Shown here: positions 4,924 through 27,523 of the stretch, one piece after another
How the letters are laid out: every line of letters starts with the position of its first letter
How positions within the stretch are numbered: position 1 is the first letter of the stretch
Translations under genes and position numbers: made by a program
Source of the DNA: Nitrosopumilaceae archaeon
Lineage (GTDB): Archaea > Thermoproteota > Nitrososphaeria > Nitrososphaerales > Nitrosopumilaceae
Reading direction: 5' to 3'
Assembly: GCA_965214835.1 (NCBI GenBank)
Contig: CBDCCK010000002.1
Location: 3,054,430-3,086,429 of the forward strand
Length of the DNA: 32,000 nt
The notes under the pieces: generated by a model
Told to the model about the DNA's origin: nothing
The model's database searches: none
What the model saw: the letters and a program-made list of their open reading frames with translations, nothing else

Positions 4924-5956
4924 TTTCATATGATAATTAGTTCCGCCTAACATTTGTATCCTTCATCCATTTGGGGTCGCTTTTCCTGATCGCTTTTGTG
5001 GCCTCCCGGCTCCGGAACGCCATCCTGGGCGTCTCGGCATGCTTGATGTCAAGCGACCAGTGCGTCCTGCGCTCGTTGTAGAACTCGATGAACTCGTCTA
5101 CTTTGTCAAAGTGCGTCAGCTCCTTCTCAAGCGTTCCGAACCACCTCTCCAGCTTGCCGTTGGTCTGCGGATGGTACGGACGTGAGTTGAGCAGAGTGAT
5201 GTTGCGCTCCAACAGCTCGTCCTCAAACAGCGTGGGCATCCAGCTGCCCCCGGGGGGTGCCGCGCCTGGCCGACGTAAAGCAGCTGCCGTTGTCCGAGAG
5301 TATCTGGGCCGGCGTCCCGAACTCCCGGATGGCCCTGCGCAGCACCAAGACTGCGTTCTCCGATGTCGCGTGCTCAAATACGCCGAATCCGGTTATGCAC
5401 CGCGAAGAATCGTCAAGATACGCCTGCCAGATTGAGCTTTTGTAGGCGTGGATCCTTCATTTCGTGCCAGTCTGTGTGCCACATTGTGTTGTAATACATG
5501 CGCTCATAGCGCAGCCATTTGAGCTGTCTGGATCTTCCTGGCGAGCTGCCCGTGATTCCCTCGGCCTTCATGATCCCGTATACCTAATAGTAGCTTATCT
5601 GCCTGCGGCCCTCATGCGCAATGCCAGCCGCTCCGCACCCGACGGCATCTGGGAATATGCGTCAAGGACCGCCCTGACATCCCCGGGATCCATGCCCATG
5701 CCGGGCCTTCCTGCCCCGTTCTGCGGCAGGACCGTGCCGGATCTACGGAACCTGGCCCATATCTTCCCGACGTACCTGTCGCTGATGCCCAGCTCCCGGG
5801 CTATCTGCCTTGCAGGCACGCCCTTTTTTCTCTGCCTTTCTATGTACCGGAGCGACTTTTTCCCCAATCTTTTCCTCGCATTTTTTGATCGGTACAGCCT
5901 GAAATAATCCTTCAAAGTACGCCTGATCTTAGGCGGAACTAATTTTCGTATGATAG
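4924..5956 (-). mobile_element. Decayed insertion sequence with rve (integrase-core) DDE transposase, IS481-like
   Basis: Terminal inverted repeats: 4921..4950 ctatttcatatgataattagttccgcctaa versus 5929..5956 ttaggcggaactaattttcgtatgatag (16 bp perfect, about 25 bp imperfect). They enclose a fragmented transposase. Confidence 0.75.
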
Positions 5957-5969
5957 AGTACGTGGTCAT
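4937..5969 (-). pseudogene. rve-type DDE transposase, disrupted by an in-frame stop and frameshifts
   Basis: HTH ORF 5595..5969 (GVPARQIARELGISDRYV). Across 5377..5600 the frames read WHTDW and LSDNGSCF only after frame changes and a TAG. C-terminal ORF 4937..5377 carries PYHPQTNGKLERW. Confidence 0.75.
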
Positions 5970-6045
5970 CTGCCCCTAGCAATCATGTACGGATCTGCCT
6001 GCATCTGTGATCTTCATGCCCAGATAGGAGGACGTGACTTCAATT
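5958..6045 (+). mobile_element. MITE-A copy (about 90-bp palindromic element, TIR GTAyGnGGTCAyCTGCCCCT)
   Basis: Left arm gtacgtggtcatctgcccctagc and right arm gataggaggacgtgacttc. Homologous to 8114..8205 and 16744..16834. Confidence 0.6.
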
Positions 6046-6116
6046 CTGGCTAGGGGTTATCCTATTGCCCTCCTTGCTACCGTATAATACGGTACTTTTA
6101 TATCATATTTGATCGC

Positions 6117-6314
6117 ATGTATGGCATGCAAAATACAGCATTCCTTCAAAGAATGGCCTACGCAAAATCCTCTGCACGAGAAGTCAGATGCCATGTATGT
6201 GGGAGTGTTTGGAGGACGGATTTTCAATCACCGCCAAATCATTGCGAAATGACACTCCAGTGTTTTGCGACATTCGTTACAAGATGCAGTATAAGTGAGG
6301 GCAAGCCATCATGA
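6117..6314 (+). CDS. Small hypothetical protein (possible CxxC motif)
   Basis: 65-aa ORF whose stop overlaps the next start in ATGA (6311..6314). Contains CHVCG. No recognisable family. Confidence 0.3.
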   Translation: MYGMQNTAFLQRMAYAKSSAREVRCHVCGSVWRTDFQSPPNHCEMTLQCFATFVTRCSISEGKPS

Positions 6315-7791: not shown

Positions 7792-7900
7792 GCAACAGCT
7801 CGGGCTCGAAGTTGTTCCTGATTTCAGGCACGAATCTGCTCAAGGGGGATCCTCGAGGTGGCAAAACTCACACCTGAACTTCCAGAGCACGAGCTGCTAC
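7792..7900 (+). mobile_element. MITE-B: 109-bp element made of the fused left and right ends of the IS66-family element at 25017..26853
   Basis: gcaacagctcgggctcgaagttgttcctgatttcaggcacgaatctg aligns to 25017..25065. ctcaagggggatcctcgaggtggcaaaactcacacctgaacttccagagcacgagctgctac aligns to 26793..26853. Confidence 0.7.
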
Positions 7901-8113
7901 AAAAAAGCAAAGGTCACATGTTGTTTGTACTGGGTAACAGAGTCGAAGTTTTGATCAGGCTTGATCGTGATGGCAAAGAATTGTACTTTATGGATTGTAA
8001 CGATATTGGTACGCTGTAGCTAATTCTCGGAGATTATATGATGTGGCGTATCAAGTAAAAGGAATGATTTGATTGAATTTACTCTGATCCGTAAGCAGTG
8101 AATCGTCGTTATT

Positions 8114-9097: not shown

Positions 9098-9823
9098 CCT
9101 GTCAGCTGTGTTCTTACAACTCAAGTCCCGCCCGCAAGAGTCTACCCCACAGGCGATACTGCTGGCCCGAGCCTTGATCACCATGCCCACCACGCCGCAT
9201 ATTCTGGAGGTGATAGACTCTTACGTCCCGCCCCCCAGATAGCTTCAAATAGATTCGGCGCTGCATGGGTCATAGGCGAGCTGGAGCACGACACGCTGCC
9301 ACGGCAGAGGAAACTCCTCCCTCCATACAGGAAATGTGACCTGGAGATGGGTAACCAGAGATGGTTGGAAACAGAACAGAAAACCAATCCCGCTGAAATT
9401 ACGATGACGGTGAAAAGCCCGAGATGTTCAGCTGCGGAATGAAAAATCTGCCCCACATGGAGCAAGGCCAAACAGAACCCCAAGTGCCTGTACTCGGTTC
9501 AGGTAGGCTGCAAAGCGAAATATCGTGAAAACAGAAGGAGGGTTACTCCCAGCACGCCTGGAATCTTTTTCCCTTGGCACGGTGCAGACGGTTTTCCCTC
9601 CCTCATGTCACATGCATGCATTCTGTCAGGTCCAGTCCTGCAATCGACGCACCAAAGGTCTTTGATCATCAAAAAGCGTCCTCATACACAGCTTGCGCCC
9701 ACATGAGCTCAAGAACTTTTGCTCGTCACCACATGCAGGACTCGTCGGATCCTGCAGGCACCTAAAGAGCAGAAGCTGCTTTGTGTGGCACTGACTTGGG
9801 ATTTGTCCTGACGGATTATGCAT

Positions 9824-22357: not shown

Positions 22358-22435
22358 GTGCCATATTGTAAAAAAATCCCTAGTTAAGCCTTGTTCATAT
22401 TTCAGCTGAGTACCCCAGATCCGGCGTCATGGAGA

Positions 22436-22990
22436 GGACTTGGGCTCCCTGAGATACACCGTCATGCACTCCTTGAACACCGGGCATCGTCGTGACGTTT
22501 TGCACCCCGGATTCCTCGACAGAGCAGCGCCCTAGCAGTTATCCACTCGTTGAACAGCATCATCGAGTAGTAAAAGCACAGGCGTCCTGGTGGCCAGGTC
22601 GGCGGTCCGGGTCTTGGCCCTGCTTAATCTTTCACACTGCCGTTTTATCTGCGCCTCAAAGGCCTCCTGTGCGGCCTCCAAGGGTGGTCGCCTTGATCCT
22701 GTAGGTGTGCCACCGGGCAGAGGAACCGGCGCCGCTTGTACACGTCGTGGCGTTGATGCACCCGCCCACCGATGCGTCATTGAGGGCACCGCGCATCATG
22801 CCGCGGCTCAGGTAGTCGATCCCGTATATGGCGTTGTGTTTCCCGGACATTCTGACACACGAGAGCATCTCCTTCCGCCATCTGTAACATGTTCATATAT
22901 GCGCGGGTCGTTCTCAAGATCGCGGCACTTTCTGGATTTTTGTTTTATCACGAAAACCACGGGGCCGCACCCCGACTGATCCGTTTGCAT
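22436..22990 (-). pseudogene. DDE transposase remnant (IS4/ISH3-like), copy A
   Basis: Multiple overlapping minus-strand frames. 22436..22623 is a 188-bp repeat of 27164..27351, which in copy B lies just downstream of the ESYSSRWGIETG (Y-x2-R-x3-E) motif. Confidence 0.5.
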
Positions 22991-23089
22991 CTGATAGTAT
23001 TGTCAAGACGGTCTAAATTTCTTGGTTTTCTGCCTGACTGGGGTACTTTTCACTTAGCTGAAGCTGCAATGCAAAGGGCAAGGGCAGCG

Positions 23090-23575
23090 GCGACAAGTGG
23101 GGCCGGCTGGTGCGATGGTAGATCGGTGGCTGCCCCAAGGTGCCGATGGGTGATCTCTCAAAGGCAGGGAGACAGGAGGGCCTATGGTATCCGAGGAGCA
23201 CCGTGCTACGGCAGGAGGCGGATCGTCGGGATCGTGATACCTGCCATAAAGCGCATGTTCGGCGAGGACGTAAAGGCCCTCAAGTGGCTCAATATAGTGC
23301 AGGAGGGGGTTGTCGCCTAATTCGTCAGAATTTCTGAAAATCATACGATGTTATCCGGACTAGGCGTGCAAAAGTGCAGAAATTCAGAAAAACGTGCGGA
23401 TTGAGTCCGGCAGGTGGAATTAGGCGACAACCCCGTGCAGGAGGTAAAGTTGAGGATATGGCTGCACAGCAAGTGGATCGCAGAGGCGCTGGCTGCCATG
23501 TGGGAGCCGAGCGCCGGCCACGATACTGGCGGATTGACTGGGCTCTAGTCGGAGCCATGTAACAGACCAGCGCAA
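23090..23575 (+). pseudogene. IS5-like DDE transposase C-terminal remnant, interrupted by MITE-C
   Basis: YGRRRIVGIVIPAIKRMFGEDVKALKWLNIVQE resembles the Y..R..vE..fs.iKRkFG...Q..E C-terminal signature. Removing the MITE and one TSD copy extends the frame to about 23548. Confidence 0.5.
23306..23434. mobile_element. MITE-C: 129-bp element with 18-bp perfect TIRs and a 9-bp target-site duplication
   Basis: TIRs are ggggttgtcgcctaattc (23306..23323) and gaattaggcgacaacccc (23417..23434). It is flanked by gtgcaggag at 23297..23305 and 23435..23443. Confidence 0.8.
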
Positions 23576-23617
23576 CCCAAATATACAATTATAACATAGT
23601 ATAAGTGGTGAATGTGC

Positions 23618-23740
23618 ATGGATAAGGAGACCAATGATGTTGAAGACATTGTCTTTGACGATAACGAAAAAATTGAAATTGCCTGCTCGTACCCGGATGT
23701 GGAAACTGCTATAAAGGCGCTCCACGCTTCAGTCAAGTAA
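23618..23740 (+). CDS. Small acidic protein (40 aa), first gene of a low-G+C two-gene cassette
   Basis: MDKETNDVEDIVFDDNEKIEIACSYPDVETAIKALHASVK. The stop overlaps the next ATG (TAATG). An A-T rich TATA-like region lies upstream. Absent from the ORF track because of its size. Confidence 0.4.
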   Translation: MDKETNDVEDIVFDDNEKIEIACSYPDVETAIKALHASVK

Positions 23741-23910
23741 TGGCAATCTCAAAAAAACTCATTTCCTTTTCTAAAGATTTTAAAAAGCAGTATCCAAACA
23801 GGTCAAAACCCGTACGTGATGAAATTGATGCAATTCTTAAGGATGTTGGAAAGATGGTGCAATACATCAGAAAAAATGATCTGCCGCTCAGAAAAGCTAA
23901 ACTATACTGA
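23740..23910 (+). pseudogene. 5' part of a small ORF interrupted by the IS630 insertion (continues at 24999..25016 and 26862..26927)
   Basis: MAISKKLISFSKDFKKQYPNRSKPVRDEIDAILKDVGKMVQYIRKNDLPLRKAKL runs into the IS630 TIR, which supplies Y-stop. Confidence 0.5.
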
Positions 23911-23981
23911 TGATCATTGAAAATTTCGCCTGATTACACATCTTGTAAAGGTTTATAGCTCCCCACCATGTCACTCCCGGC

Positions 23982-24185
23982 ATGAACAAGACGAAAATCC
24001 TCACGGATGCCATGCATGTCGAAAAGGATCTCAAGATTCACACCAGAATCATGGCGGTGCGCTCCGTACTGCTTGGCAACACCACCGCACAGACTGCAGA
24101 GATTGCCGACGTGACACAGCGTACCGTACAGATGTGGATCAAGAGATTCGAGCTTGACGGCATCGACGGCCTCCGTGACTCCTAA
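23982..24185 (+). CDS. IS630-family transposase, N-terminal HTH part
   Basis: TAQTAEIADVTQRTVQMWIKRFELDGIDGLRD is an HTH typical of IS630/Tc1 transposases. It ends in TAA while the homologous reading continues in the +1 frame. Confidence 0.75.
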   Translation: MNKTKILTDAMHVEKDLKIHTRIMAVRSVLLGNTTAQTAEIADVTQRTVQMWIKRFELDGIDGLRDS

Positions 24186-24966
24186 CAGGGACAAAAAACC
24201 AAAGGTTCCGGTCGGCAGGATAAAAAAGATCGCCACAAAGTTGCGTAGGATGGAAAAGCTCACCCCGAAGAAGCTGTGCAACCGGGTGCGCCGCAGGCTG
24301 CATGTCACATACAGCGTGGGAAGCATCAGAAGAATCCTGCGCACGATGGGATTCTCGCCAAAGACGTCAACCACCAGGCTTGCAGATGCTGCCGACGCAA
24401 AGGCGGTAAGACGGTGGCAGGGGGTGGCAAGAACCGCGATCAAGCTTGCAAAAAGGCGCGGATTTAGGATAGCCGTACAGGACGAGTCGATATTCGTCAG
24501 TACGGGAAGGGACGGCAGAAAGTTCTGGTCGCCCGTGGGGGACAGGATCGAGGTGCAACGATCCGGCAGAAGGGAGCGCGTCGCGGTATACGGAACGATT
24601 GCAGACGACGGAACCCGGCTGATGCGCACATACGACAAGTTCAACAGCGCAAACTTTGTGCATTATCTCAAGCAGGTGCACAAAAAGCGGGGAAAGGTTC
24701 TGATTGTGATGGACAACGCAGCACAGCACAAGACCGGAAAGGTCCGCAGGTACCTGAAGAAAAATCCAGACGTCGTCCTGCTGTACCTGCCGGTAGCCAG
24801 GCCGGAGCTGAGCGTCATAGAGGCAGTCTGGAAGGATGCCAAGTACGGGCCGGTCACGTCGGCATTTTACGAGACGGTAGATCACCTCAAAAGGGCCGTC
24901 TCGGAATACTTTAGGACGTGTTCCATCAAGGTTGACATCTATAGGTACCTTGAGCGCAGCTTGTAA
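24154..24966 (+). CDS. IS630-family transposase, DDE (DDE_3-like) part
   Basis: PNRDKKPKV..., IAVQDESIF, VAVYGTIADDG and LIVMDNAAQHKT give the DDE_3 pattern. Joining to the upstream ORF needs a +1 shift within 24154..24183. Confidence 0.8.
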   Translation: MTASTASVTPNRDKKPKVPVGRIKKIATKLRRMEKLTPKKLCNRVRRRLHVTYSVGSIRRILRTMGFSPKTSTTRLADAADAKAVRRWQGVARTAIKLAKRRGFRIAVQDESIFVSTGRDGRKFWSPVGDRIEVQRSGRRERVAVYGTIADDGTRLMRTYDKFNSANFVHYLKQVHKKRGKVLIVMDNAAQHKTGKVRRYLKKNPDVVLLYLPVARPELSVIEAVWKDAKYGPVTSAFYETVDHLKRAVSEYFRTCSIKVDIYRYLERSL

Positions 24967-25268
24967 GGGAGGCGAAATTTTCAATGGTCATCAGTATAGT
25001 TCTTAGAATAAAAAAGGTAACAGGTCGGGCTCCGGAAGCTGTTCCTGATTCCAGGCACGAATCTGTCTGATCGGGCTCCGGAAGCTGGATTTTGGCACAA
25101 TCTGCCATGTTTTTCGGGCTCCGGACTGCGGTGGCACATGAGCGGAACCGAATTCGTGTACCGCACACCATTTACGGCAGCCACCGCTATCATTGTATTG
25201 CTATTCCATGGCAGCAGCCATGCGCATCCGGATTCAGGGCGTGCCTGCAGGGCCTGTCATGCCTTTGT

Positions 25269-26306
25269 TTATGCTGCCGCCGCGCCGACTTGCGGGGCAG
25301 GCATCGGGATCTCCGTGACCCTGCCGTCAAGATAGTCCGTTACGAACGAGCAAAAGTTGACGCCGCGCAGCTCACACGTGGCGTATACTGTACACATGGT
25401 CTCAGTCATCTTCATTCCCTTCTCGGATCTGTTTCCGTACAGGATCTTCCGTATCACGGCAATCATGCGCAGTACCCTCTCGCTGCCGTTGTTGTGATAC
25501 TCGACGTCATGCTCCAGGAACGTAAACAGGTCGTCGACCTCCCTTTTGAGGCGCTTTGTATATCGGATGCAGTCCGTGTCCGTGTACGCGGCCGAGGCAA
25601 GCTTGTGTATGCGGTACTTGAGGCACTGCACCTCCCCGGGCGTGGCCTTGCCCATCTCTATTGCGTCCTTTAGGATGCCGCGCAGCCTGTAAAACAGCGT
25701 GCCGTACTCGGCGCTGCCGTTTTTATCCAGCGTCAGGTACATGTCCCGAAAGTAGTGCAGGAGGCACTTTTGGTGCTTGCCGCCGATGCGGTTCCACACC
25801 GAGTACGAGTCTGATGAGACGATGCCGTCAAAGGCTGCCATCAGGGAATCTATGACGTCGCCTGAGCGGGACGGCGCTATGTGGTAGAACACCGAGAACC
25901 GGGTCACAAGCACCCAGACCCAGTGGCCCGTCCCGTTGAGAAACCAGCCCGTCTCATCACCCCCGACGGACTCTGAGCGCCGTATTCCCTCCAGAATGCC
26001 GTCATATACAGGCATCATCCTGGTAGTCGATACATCACACAGGTGGATCAGGGTGGACTTTGGTATGCAGGCGTCGTGAAGCGTGTGCAGTATGATCTGG
26101 ATCTTTTCAAAGGATATACACATGCAGCGAAGAAACACGATTATCCCGATGATGCGCGTGCCGTAATGCTCGTCCGGCAGCACGCCGGGCACGGGGCGGC
26201 GCGCTTTTTCTTGCATGACTTGCAGTAGCGCTTGGTGACGTCCCATTCCGTCTCGGTCCACTTGCCGTCGACCAGATCCTTGGACTTTCTTGTGTACCTT
26301 TCGCAC
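25269..26306 (-). CDS. IS66-family transposase, DDE catalytic part
   Basis: GGDETGWFLNG, GHWVWVLVT, SRSGDV...FDGIVSSDSYSVWN, QKCLLHYFRD and HNNGSERVLRMIAVIRKILYGNRSEKG follow the IS66 TnpC pattern. It is in the -1 frame relative to 26141..26719. Confidence 0.85.
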   Translation of the reverse strand: MRKVHKKVQGSGRRQVDRDGMGRHQALLQVMQEKARRPVPGVLPDEHYGTRIIGIIVFLRCMCISFEKIQIILHTLHDACIPKSTLIHLCDVSTTRMMPVYDGILEGIRRSESVGGDETGWFLNGTGHWVWVLVTRFSVFYHIAPSRSGDVIDSLMAAFDGIVSSDSYSVWNRIGGKHQKCLLHYFRDMYLTLDKNGSAEYGTLFYRLRGILKDAIEMGKATPGEVQCLKYRIHKLASAAYTDTDCIRYTKRLKREVDDLFTFLEHDVEYHNNGSERVLRMIAVIRKILYGNRSEKGMKMTETMCTVYATCELRGVNFCSFVTDYLDGRVTEIPMPAPQVGAAAA

Positions 26307-26719
26307 CAGTCAGAGAGCTTGTCGCCGCATCCGGGGCAGAACTCGGCGTCTGCCGTGCACGTGCGGGTGACTGCCTTGGTCTCTGGCTTCTTTTTTGGGG
26401 CCGCCTTTTCAGGATGCGGAAAGTCGTGGAACTTGCGCACGTTATAGCTGCGCGAGTTCGGCTCTTTGCGGGCCTCCTTTGGGACCGAGCCGTCTGCCGG
26501 CCCGGATCCGGACGCCGGTATCTGCTGGCCGAGCAGTGTCCTTAGCCGTTCGATTTCCTCTTGCTGCTGCTGGATCACTTTCTGCAGCTGTCCGATTTCC
26601 TCTTGCTGCTGCTGGTTCTCGTTTTCAACCTTCTCCACCCTTGACCTCATGTGTTCAAACAGGCGGATCACGTCGGGAATTCTCCAGTCCACGTCCGTAA
26701 TGTCAGGATCCCCAACCAA
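26141..26719 (-). CDS. IS66-family transposase, N-terminal part (coiled coil plus zinc finger)
   Basis: A Q/E-rich heptad region (QQQEEIGQLQKVIQQQQEEIERLRTLL), then CPGCGDKL...YCKSCKKK (CxxC...CxxC). Confidence 0.8.
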   Translation of the reverse strand: MVGDPDITDVDWRIPDVIRLFEHMRSRVEKVENENQQQQEEIGQLQKVIQQQQEEIERLRTLLGQQIPASGSGPADGSVPKEARKEPNSRSYNVRKFHDFPHPEKAAPKKKPETKAVTRTCTADAEFCPGCGDKLSDWCERYTRKSKDLVDGKWTETEWDVTKRYCKSCKKKRAAPCPACCRTSITARASSG

Positions 26720-26861
26720 TACCCGGAAGGCAGATCCTGGGATCTTTATGTGTTGTGATTCCTCCAGATCTTCCTGCTAACCCGGGGTGCTGCTCAAGGG
26801 GGCCTCCAAGGTGGCAAGATTCACGCCTGAACTTCCCGAGCCCGACCTGTTACTAAAAAAG

Positions 26862-26927
26862 TCTAACGAGGCACTTGAAGTAATTATCCTTCCGGTTCCA
26901 CGCATAATCATAAAAAGAATAGCATAG
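26862..26927 (+). pseudogene. 3' part of the interrupted small ORF (see 23740..23910)
   Basis: After in silico removal of both IS elements and one copy of each TSD, the frame continues VLRIKK-SNEALEVIILPVPRIIIKRIA-stop. Confidence 0.4.
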
Positions 26928-26992
26928 CAGACTGCATAAACGAAAACAATAGGCTGTGGTGTAGATTAGAAGTTATTCAACAACAAAAAGTA

Positions 26993-27003
26993 CCCCCCCC
27001 CCC
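26993..27003 (+). repeat. C11 homopolymer tract
   Basis: gta followed by eleven C then agtgg, inside an otherwise A-T rich stretch. Confidence 0.9.
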
Positions 27004-27118
27004 AGTGGCCCACATCACATGAGTTAAAGAATTTTTGATCATCACTGTGGATCGCTGTAACATGCAGATACCAATTTTGTTGCGAGAAGGTTTGGTCATG
27101 ACTGAAAGCCAAGTTGGA

Positions 27119-27523
27119 CTAACCTGTACAATTGACTTTGAACAAATCCCAGAATCTGCTAGGGGACTTGGGCTCCCTGAGATACACCGTCATGCACTCC
27201 TTGAACACCGGGCATCGTCGTGACGTTTTGCACCCTGGATTCCTCGACAGAGCAGTGCCCTGGCAGTTATTCACTCGTTGAACAGTATCATCGAGTAGTA
27301 AAAGTACAGGCATCCTGGTGGCCAGGTCGGCGGTCCGGGTCTTGGCCCTGCATTCTGTCTTGGCGCATCCTGTCTCGATTCCCCACCTTGACGAGTACGA
27401 CTCGATCCTGATTCCGGGCAGGTTCGCTGCAAGCCCGATGGACTTTTTCTCCGGCCTGTCCTCCTTTGATGCATCCATGGGCCTGCCGTCATCCCCGGAC
27501 TTTTTCCTCTCCGTTACTATCAT
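27119..27523 (-). pseudogene. DDE transposase remnant (IS4/ISH3-like), copy B
   Basis: ESYSSRWGIETG (Y-x2-R-x3-E signature), then frameshifted LYFYYSMILFNEW. 27164..27351 repeats 22436..22623. Confidence 0.55.

Follow-up and report, generated by a model that had tools for sequence, protein, structure and literature searches.

Antitoxins that lack a DNA-binding domain are known, for example, from the archaeal aRelE-aRelB pair of Pyrococcus horikoshii (PDB 1WMI), in which aRelB (67 amino acids, aa) has no folded DNA-binding core and wraps around its 90-aa toxin aRelE. Another case is the PaaR2-PaaA2-ParE2 system of Escherichia coli O157:H7, where PaaA2 (63 aa), also without a DNA-binding domain, neutralises a toxin of ParE fold and is accompanied by a separate regulator gene. 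Ammonia-oxidising archaea are globally important, and to our knowledge almost nothing has been established experimentally about their toxin-antitoxin or other addiction modules. Here we describe a small two-gene cassette, ORF1-ORF2, in a 32,000-nt stretch of a Nitrosopumilaceae genome (contig CBDCCK010000002.1; the whole stretch is referred to as the window). Its second open reading frame (ORF) is split by two insertion sequences (ISs), one IS630-like and one IS66-like. We think it somewhat probable that the cassette represents a new type II toxin-antitoxin-like family with the RelE/ParE fold, the toxin gene of which is inactivated at this locus.

The cassette resembles E. coli RelBE (4FXE) and other members of the RelE/ParE superfamily (HigB, YoeB, YafQ, ParE) in the order of its genes, with the putative antitoxin preceding the putative toxin, and in the overlap of stop and start codons. 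The ORF2 product is likewise small and basic, and is modelled with the strand and helix order b-a-a-b-b-b. Unlike RelBE, the ORF2 family shows no detectable sequence homology to these toxins and has no C-terminal helix, while its partner ORF1 is only 40 aa long, has no DNA-binding domain, of ribbon-helix-helix type or otherwise, and is better conserved than ORF2. In contrast to the superfamily as a whole, the ORF1-ORF2 family has so far been found in Nitrosopumilus-type archaea alone. It differs from aRelE-aRelB in having no sequence similarity to that pair, and both 1WMI and the M. jannaschii RelBE entry are absent from the top 50 Foldseek matches of the ORF2 model. As opposed to PaaR2-PaaA2-ParE2, no conserved third gene accompanies the cassette (small ORFs on its 5' side differ between loci), and ORF1 is shorter than PaaA2. 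By analogy, the nearest precedents for ORF1 would nevertheless be antitoxins devoid of a DNA-binding domain, such as PaaA2 and P. horikoshii aRelB.

ORF1 (23618..23740, forward strand) is intact in the window and encodes an acidic product of 40 aa, MDKETNDVEDIVFDDNEKIEIACSYPDVETAIKALHASVK (isoelectric point, pI, 4.2; charge -7). Its stop codon shares the sequence TAATG with the start of ORF2. A ribosome-binding motif GGTGA, read directly from the forward strand at 23607..23611, lies 6 nt 5' of the ORF1 ATG, and the start at 23618 is likely because an alternative ATG at 23612 directly abuts this motif. GGTGA or GTGA is present at equal spacing 5' of ORF1 in three other loci (L001, L003, and L004). 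The AT-rich, TATA-like stretch further upstream (23580-23600) may, judging by its composition, act as a promoter.

On the same strand, ORF2 is distributed over three segments. Part A (23740..23904) comprises codons 1-55 and carries strand b1 and helices a1 and a2 of the structural model. Part B (24999..25016) consists of codons 56-61 and corresponds to the 18 bp of host DNA left between the two ISs, while part C (26862..26927) comprises codons 62-82 plus the stop and carries strands b3 and b4. When joined, these segments give an ORF2 of 249 nt, that is 82 codons plus the stop, encoding a basic protein (82 aa, pI 10.5); as annotated, the window holds only a stump of it, a truncated product of 56 aa (P0005). 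The initial annotation had placed the host DNA at about one-third G+C. It is indeed deviant from the backbone, but the value is somewhat higher, 38.5% for the island after removal of the ISs (34.5% in ORF2 and 42% in ORF1, versus 54% for the window). The G+C content at third codon positions (GC3) is 0.31-0.49 for the cassette in the window versus 0.62-0.70 for host genes. Cassette GC3 reaches 0.52-0.56 in one locus of 68% G+C, and the cassette is AT-richer than its host in every case.

The first interruption is a 1,092-bp IS of the IS630 family (23905..24996, forward strand), flanked by TA on either side (23903-04 and 24997-98). The inverted repeats of ~25-32 nt show 97% complementarity, and CTAG is found within the restored target, AAACTAGTTC. 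The element thus combines a DDE transposase, TA duplication within CTAG, and terminal inverted repeats, as is usual for the IS630 family. Its transposase, matched in Pfam by DDE_3 (E=7e-23) and by HTH_23, HTH_28, and HTH_33, is encoded in two pieces one frame apart, 23982-24185 (helix-turn-helix) and 24154-24966 (DDE_3). The frame switch (24154-24200) is positioned just 5' of an A6 run (ACAAAAAACC). A partial second copy of this element, 90% identical to 24647-25000, is located at positions 6-357 of the window.

The second interruption is a 1,837-bp IS of the IS66 family (25017..26853, reverse strand). Two identical copies of an 8-bp duplication, TAAAAAAG, flank it at 25009-16 and 26854-61, the first of them being the last 8 bp of ORF2 part B. 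The 22-nt inverted repeats are 95% complementary and begin with GTAACAGG (GTAA-type); together with the 8-bp duplication and the DDE_Tnp_IS66 transposase (Pfam, E=4e-24), they are features of the IS66 family. A weak zf-IS66 match (E=0.002) remains below the Pfam cut-off. Here too the transposase is in two pieces, 26719-26141 (coiled coil and the weak zf-IS66 match) and 26306-25269 (DDE_Tnp_IS66), which overlap by 166 nt (26141-26306). No canonical IS66 accessory tnpA or tnpB gene is found in the 1,837-bp element, which has room for the transposase only, a layout that we take to be that of the ISBst12-like subgroup. In addition, two IS66 element ends alone form a ~115-bp miniature inverted-repeat transposable element (MITE) at ~7793-7907.

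Compared with IS630 and IS66 (ISBst12-like) ISs that disrupt accessory genes, both elements are of textbook anatomy, and the insertions in themselves are ordinary. What distinguishes them from ordinary members of these families is that two unrelated elements are inserted at a distance of 18 bp, each with a frame-split transposase; either decay or programmed frameshifting may lie behind the splits. Because the elements are adjacent and not nested, their order of insertion cannot be inferred. The coordinates, TAATG overlap, IS boundaries, and duplications reported in the initial annotation all hold to the base, and its in silico excision, repeated here, gave the identical product, an uninterrupted ORF of 82 codons.

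A search with the restored ORF2 product through 5.8 billion protein clusters disclosed nine proteins, including the window's own 56-aa stump; seven of the nine are uninterrupted and 79-82 aa long. Alignment with homologues covers all 82 residues, with no gaps across either junction. The rejoined C-terminus (LVLRIKKSNEALEVIILPVPRIIIKRIA) aligns gap-free to uninterrupted homologues, e.g. ITLRIKPSNEALSVIILPVPRIIIKRIE, and the rejoined tail SNEALEVIILPVPRIIIKRIA fits the family consensus SNEALSVIVLPxPRIIIKRIE. In a genome scan of one genome per GTDB species, a close relative was found in OZ243974.1 (locus L005), the 2.83-Mb chromosome of a 'Nitrosopumilus sp.' metagenome-assembled genome (MAG). 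Its cassette is 98% identical to that of the window and contiguous through both insertion points (...AAACTAGTTCTTAGAATAAAAAAAGTCTAACGAGG...), and represents the empty site for both ISs. Full-length homologues together with this empty site validate the reconstruction of ORF2, which is real and far beyond chance. The initial annotation had made its proposal depend on homologues of the restored product and on a continuous ORF at uninterrupted sites, and both were found.

The cassette of L005 is itself damaged. Its ORF2 is frameshifted, with 7 A's versus the 6 implied by the window duplication, and in this locus (5140-6189) nested IS66-like and IS5-like fragments have taken the place of ORF1 codons 1-25. 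Since these lesions differ from those in the window, the two cassettes were damaged independently. Similarity extends into a common AT-rich 3' flank (26928..27159) and stops at 27159; in blastn, L005 6178-6478 is 94% identical to window 26855-27159. This flank contains a run of 11 C's at 26993-27003, where L005 has TCCACCTAG, and the run could reflect hypervariability of the homopolymer or an artefact of assembly.

A profile search with ORF2 revealed 14 proteins (word-indexed search of the 5.8 billion clusters), and a HMMER search of 1.84 billion representatives yielded 17 proteins of the ORF2 family at E<=0.001. The named hosts of the family are without exception Nitrosopumilus MAGs. That the window is archaeal is confirmed by an RNase P RNA of archaeal type at 9276-9557 (Rfam RF00373, 186 bits). 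For ORF1, 12 homologues of 39-43 aa were detected, with 19 invariant positions and the consensus VEDIVFDDGEKIEIACSYPDVETAIKALH. Wherever ORF2 is intact (L001/L006, L004, L007, L011 with L019-21, L012, L016, and L022), ORF1 is situated directly 5' of it, with a TAATG or ATGA overlap or a gap of <=5 nt, and this pairing holds also in L024, which harbours the most distant ORF2 relative (E=1e-5). The L003 locus, in which ORF2 is frameshifted, keeps this arrangement too. The organization is that of two small, tightly coupled genes, a putative antitoxin followed by a putative toxin. Both ORFs are under purifying selection, the ratio of nonsynonymous to synonymous substitutions (dN/dS) being 0.05-0.23 in ORF1 and 0.11-0.5 in ORF2, with synonymous sites saturated.

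The two ORFs also occur as a natural fusion in a distant family member, P0037 (133 aa; L018 955-1356), which has an ORF1-like N-terminus and an ORF2-like C-terminus. The ORF1 profile matches the N-terminus, IYDDDGEIIKITTATDYGDAIKSY, at E=0.0075; a combined MAFFT alignment for the fusion was abandoned because it misplaced ORF1 sequences onto the ORF2 part. P0037 is encoded on a Logan contig (ERR10503222) of 28% G+C, among same-strand ORFs without family assignment, one of which matches a PHROG without known function, and may represent viral or plasmid DNA. At L007 (CATOSM010000001.1), a partial copy of the ORF1 5' end (SEVEDIVFDDGEKI...) was observed at 5828-5870, ~70 nt 5' of the intact pair. 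A metagenome scan with ORF1 gave two true loci and one false. The latter, L017, was rejected as an unrelated gene sharing the motif YPEVETAIKALH: the ORF1 motif YPDVETAIKALH is nearly identical to its strand-helix segment RYPEVETAIKALHPYDLPEI (L017 295-339), located on an unrelated contig of 63% G+C. We take the L017 gene to be CutA-like. This likeness is probably a convergence, though it gives a hint of the secondary structure that ORF1 may adopt locally.

Neither product has a relevant match in the Pfam, NCBIfam, PADLOC, and PHROG libraries, and scanning the 24 ORF2 family members one by one did not change this. The defence models of PADLOC-DB 2.0 yielded nothing meaningful, the best being the methyltransferase model MTase_II (E=0.031). 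An AlphaFold2 model of the ORF2 product, built on a 12-sequence alignment, reached a pLDDT (predicted local distance difference test) of 89.8 and a pTM (predicted template modelling score) of 0.76, with all five models >=85. The predicted elements are b1(8-10), a1(12-20), a2(23-45), b2(53-58), b3(65-71), and b4(75-81), and the modelled topology, b-a-a-b-b-b, is that of RelE/ParE toxins. In a Foldseek search of PDB, the top match was E. coli RelE (4fxe_E; E=0.02, probability 1.00, template modelling score, TM, 0.60), followed by Mycobacterium tuberculosis RelE1, 6af4, ParE1, ParE2, and ParE (3kxe). The entry 6af4 is from S. pneumoniae and is labelled merely as a toxin-antitoxin module; its toxin is presumably HigB. 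We also see in the N-terminal LISFSxDFKKQY of ORF2 ([LI]xFSxxFKxxY) and in the long amphipathic helix a presumable resemblance to the start of RelE, YafQ, and ParE toxins. The motif RK[IA]K in b2 stands at the sequence positions of YKIK in RelE, which holds catalytic K52 and K54 (the RelE sequence was verified); the comparison is one of sequence positions. The K52 position is conserved in >=90% of the 24 aligned members, and K54 hardly varies within the 12-member core. Based on the model, a RelE/ParE fold of ORF2 is probable.

Assessing the state of the two ORFs revealed a recurrent pattern of loss. ORF2 is defective beside an intact ORF1 in the window (two ISs), in L003, in L008-10, and in L013/14. 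It is deleted in L008-10 (three independent assemblies of a 52% G+C relative) and in L013/14 (two assemblies), while in L003 it carries two frameshifts (two 1-nt deletions; GCA_029782515.1). In L015, ORF1 occurs alone and ORF2 is absent. No locus has an intact ORF2 beside a damaged ORF1, and L005 is the sole ORF2-defective locus in which ORF1 is damaged. A toxin-antitoxin-like nature had been guessed in the initial annotation on the grounds of size, charge, and the order of the genes, and it gains support from the RelE/ParE topology of the model, the conserved pairing, the fusion P0037, and the repeated loss of ORF2.

Neighbourhoods of the cassette vary by lineage: Fic occurs near it in L022, and Fic, HicB, and MazE-like genes in L013. 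In one high-GC lineage (L011/L019/L020), the cassette keeps a stable, syntenic place beside MoxR/VWA genes. Sponge-symbiotic Thaumarchaeota have been described as having high G+C, Fic proteins, and variable transposase loads (PMC7848895). The genomes in question here are rich in ISs and of high G+C, and by analogy the window genome may belong to a sponge symbiont. Remnants of IS6-like transposases, recognized by weak DDE_Tnp_IS240 and rve_3 matches, are linked to the cassette in four lineages (L001 6211-6717; L004 2143-2526; L013 1835-1975; L022 ~497-555). In L001, L004, and L022, the remnant follows ORF2 tail-to-tail and abuts its stop, while in L013/14 it is placed 60 nt 5' of ORF1, an order that points to an earlier tandem, circular, or compound-transposon arrangement. 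With its patchy distribution, varied neighbourhoods, AT-richness, and IS6-like remnants, the cassette behaves as accessory DNA that moves horizontally, which would be expected of an addiction module.

The cassette could also be carried by, or left over from, a larger mobile element, such as an IS6-type compound transposon, a plasmid, or a virus, and not a free-standing chromosomal module, an explanation that we hold to be possible and rather doubtful. It is consistent with the co-divergence of the IS6-like remnant and the cassette between L001 and L004, where 75% identity extends to 350 bp past the ORF2 stop, and with the occurrence of the same IS6-like piece 5' of ORF1 in L013/14 and 3' of ORF2 in L022. 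The lower GC3 of the cassette relative to its host, and the AT-rich contig of the fusion homologue with its unknown same-strand ORFs and single PHROG match, point the same way. However, an intact flanking pair of IS6 elements was seen at none of the loci, the window flanks show no IS6 homology, no tRNA or integrase adjoins the cassette in the window, and a scan of 2.9 million viral contigs with both proteins gave zero matches. Even as cargo, the cassette could still be a toxin-antitoxin pair, which would then stabilise the larger element.

Two specific origins gained no support. The initial annotation had likened the pair, among others, to small plasmid- or virus-derived modules; for a viral origin there was no support, as the viral-contig scans were empty and a Foldseek search of BFVD returned weak matches alone, nearly all of them to uncharacterised proteins. 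A tRNA-linked integration, or a link to non-coding RNA, was abandoned as well: the archaeal RNase P RNA is the one Rfam match in the window, and zero tRNAs were found there.

Several observations weigh against a toxin-antitoxin function. In Pfam and NCBIfam, 24 of the 24 ORF2 members have no RelE, ParE, YoeB, HigB, or YafQ match at E<=10, the ORF2 family profile has no match among PDB sequences, and hhalign detected no significant similarity between ORF2 and E. coli RelE. By E-value the fold match is weak, with no PDB match at E<=0.001 and TM values of 0.38-0.60. The ORF2 product stops directly behind b4 and so lacks the C-terminal helix of RelE with R81 and Y87, and no equivalent of R61 is visible. 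For an antitoxin, the conservation of ORF1 is unusually high, and no DNA-binding domain was found in it with Pfam, PADLOC, and PHROG. In the AlphaFold model of the fusion P0037, the ORF1-like part was left undocked, with pLDDT <50. The ORF2 defects in L005 (7 A's) and L003 could be assembly errors, and ORF1, being shorter, is a smaller mutational target, which accounts for part of the asymmetry of loss.

On such grounds, the pair might instead be a conserved non-toxic protein of two subunits, for example a small nucleic-acid- or ribosome-binding heterodimer or a regulator, that has no more than an alpha/beta topology in common with RelE and is dispensable in this lineage, its loss following no addiction logic. 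Zero sequence matches to toxin or defence families and a weak fold match would fit such a protein, as would the missing RelE catalytic helix, an ORF1 far more conserved than typical antitoxins, and the stable, syntenic position near MoxR/VWA in L011/L019/L020. Yet a single toxin superfamily consistently supplies the best structural matches. The distribution is extremely patchy and the contexts varied, the cassette is always AT-richer than its host, it is accompanied by IS remnants and by Fic, HicB, and MazE neighbours, and the loss is asymmetric, with ORF2 going first. We therefore view a non-toxic pair as a tentative alternative, on the unlikely side.

Under the reading that we prefer, ORF1-ORF2 would be a bicistronic, translationally coupled toxin-antitoxin-like (addiction) module of Nitrosopumilus-type ammonia-oxidising archaea. 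ORF2 would be its toxin, probably a ribosome-associated mRNA endonuclease of RelE type; a gyrase poison of ParE type appears less probable. ORF1, without a DNA-binding domain of its own, would neutralise ORF2 through direct binding. Such binding is favoured by the natural fusion P0037, the strict co-occurrence, and the opposite charges of the two products, while the model of the fusion is uninformative in this respect. Since ORF1 has no DNA-binding domain, canonical autoregulation cannot apply. In the window, the IS630-like element entered CTAG within codon 55/56 of ORF2, and the IS66-like element inserted 18 bp downstream. Either insertion alone would strip the whole beta-sheet, leaving a dead toxin and ORF1 as an intact orphan. 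The double hit would then represent tolerated decay, for which selection is possible and not required, in a dispensable AT-rich island amid IS debris that offers target sites preferred by both IS families.

We consider it unlikely that the insertions were instead selected, which would be the case if the loss of ORF2 was advantageous, for example as the loss of a costly toxin in a host-restricted symbiont, the second hit reinforcing or merely following the first. Two independent ISs within 18 bp are in line with selection, as are independent hits to ORF2 in at least three robust lineages with ORF1 persisting, and a dN/dS of 0.125 for ORF1 between the window and L008, both of which are without ORF2. 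Nevertheless, the block of IS and MITE debris around the cassette, and the different set of ISs piled at the same locus in L005, point to a permissive dumping ground. In a genome of 54% G+C, the AT-rich island supplies the CTAG/TA site and an A-rich 8-mer, CTAG is scarce in the window (58 observed vs 123 expected), and once the first hit had occurred the second was neutral by definition. Between selected and merely tolerated inactivation, we lean towards the latter.

The idea that the ORFs are chance frames in AT-rich junk and their in-frame rejoining a coincidence is refuted and can be set aside, for although neither product matches a curated family, both have homologues under strong purifying selection, each residue of the rejoined C-terminus finds its counterpart in alignment with uninterrupted proteins, an empty site exists, and the structure model is confident.

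Concerning the wider surroundings, the cassette is embedded in a block of ~5.4 kb (22.4-27.8 kb) that is almost entirely mobile DNA and contains a degenerate transposase-like ORF with a MITE, the IS630-like and IS66-like elements, and a repeated element starting from 27160. The degenerate ORF, the left neighbour of the cassette (22433..23560, forward strand), has no Pfam match, and its C-terminal motif is presumably IS5-like. The MITE within it is 128 bp long (23307-23434) and ends in perfect 18-nt inverted repeats, GGGGTTGTCGCCTAATTC; its target duplication is 10 bp long, GTGCAGGAGG, and excision of the MITE and one duplication restores the frame of the ORF. Three copies of this MITE, with 80-94% identity, are present in the relative L005. 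A direct repeat of 191 nt, 96% identical between its copies at 22433-22623 and 27161-27351, brackets the cassette and the IS block and looks like the start of another repeated element. Inverted repeats of that element were looked for at 22433 and 27160, and none were found.

ORF1-ORF2 is a candidate for a previously undescribed family, present in none of the curated libraries scanned. ORF2 ranks among the smallest candidates for a RelE/ParE fold, and its partner is unusually tiny and devoid of a DNA-binding domain. The value of the IS insertions is that a gene could be rebuilt base-exactly through two adjacent mobile elements, with confirmation from the empty site of a relative. A bolder form of the toxin-antitoxin reading, which we offer with considerable reserve, is that of a minimal addiction module. 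It would consist of an 80-aa 'mini-RelE' without the C-terminal catalytic helix and a 40-aa antitoxin without a DNA-binding domain, travelling with IS6-type elements, and its antitoxin would outlive the toxin as a selected anti-addiction orphan. If ORF2 is toxic, the cassette would add a family to the RelE/ParE superfamily and would provide a compact case of toxin-first decay in which the orphan antitoxin is kept.

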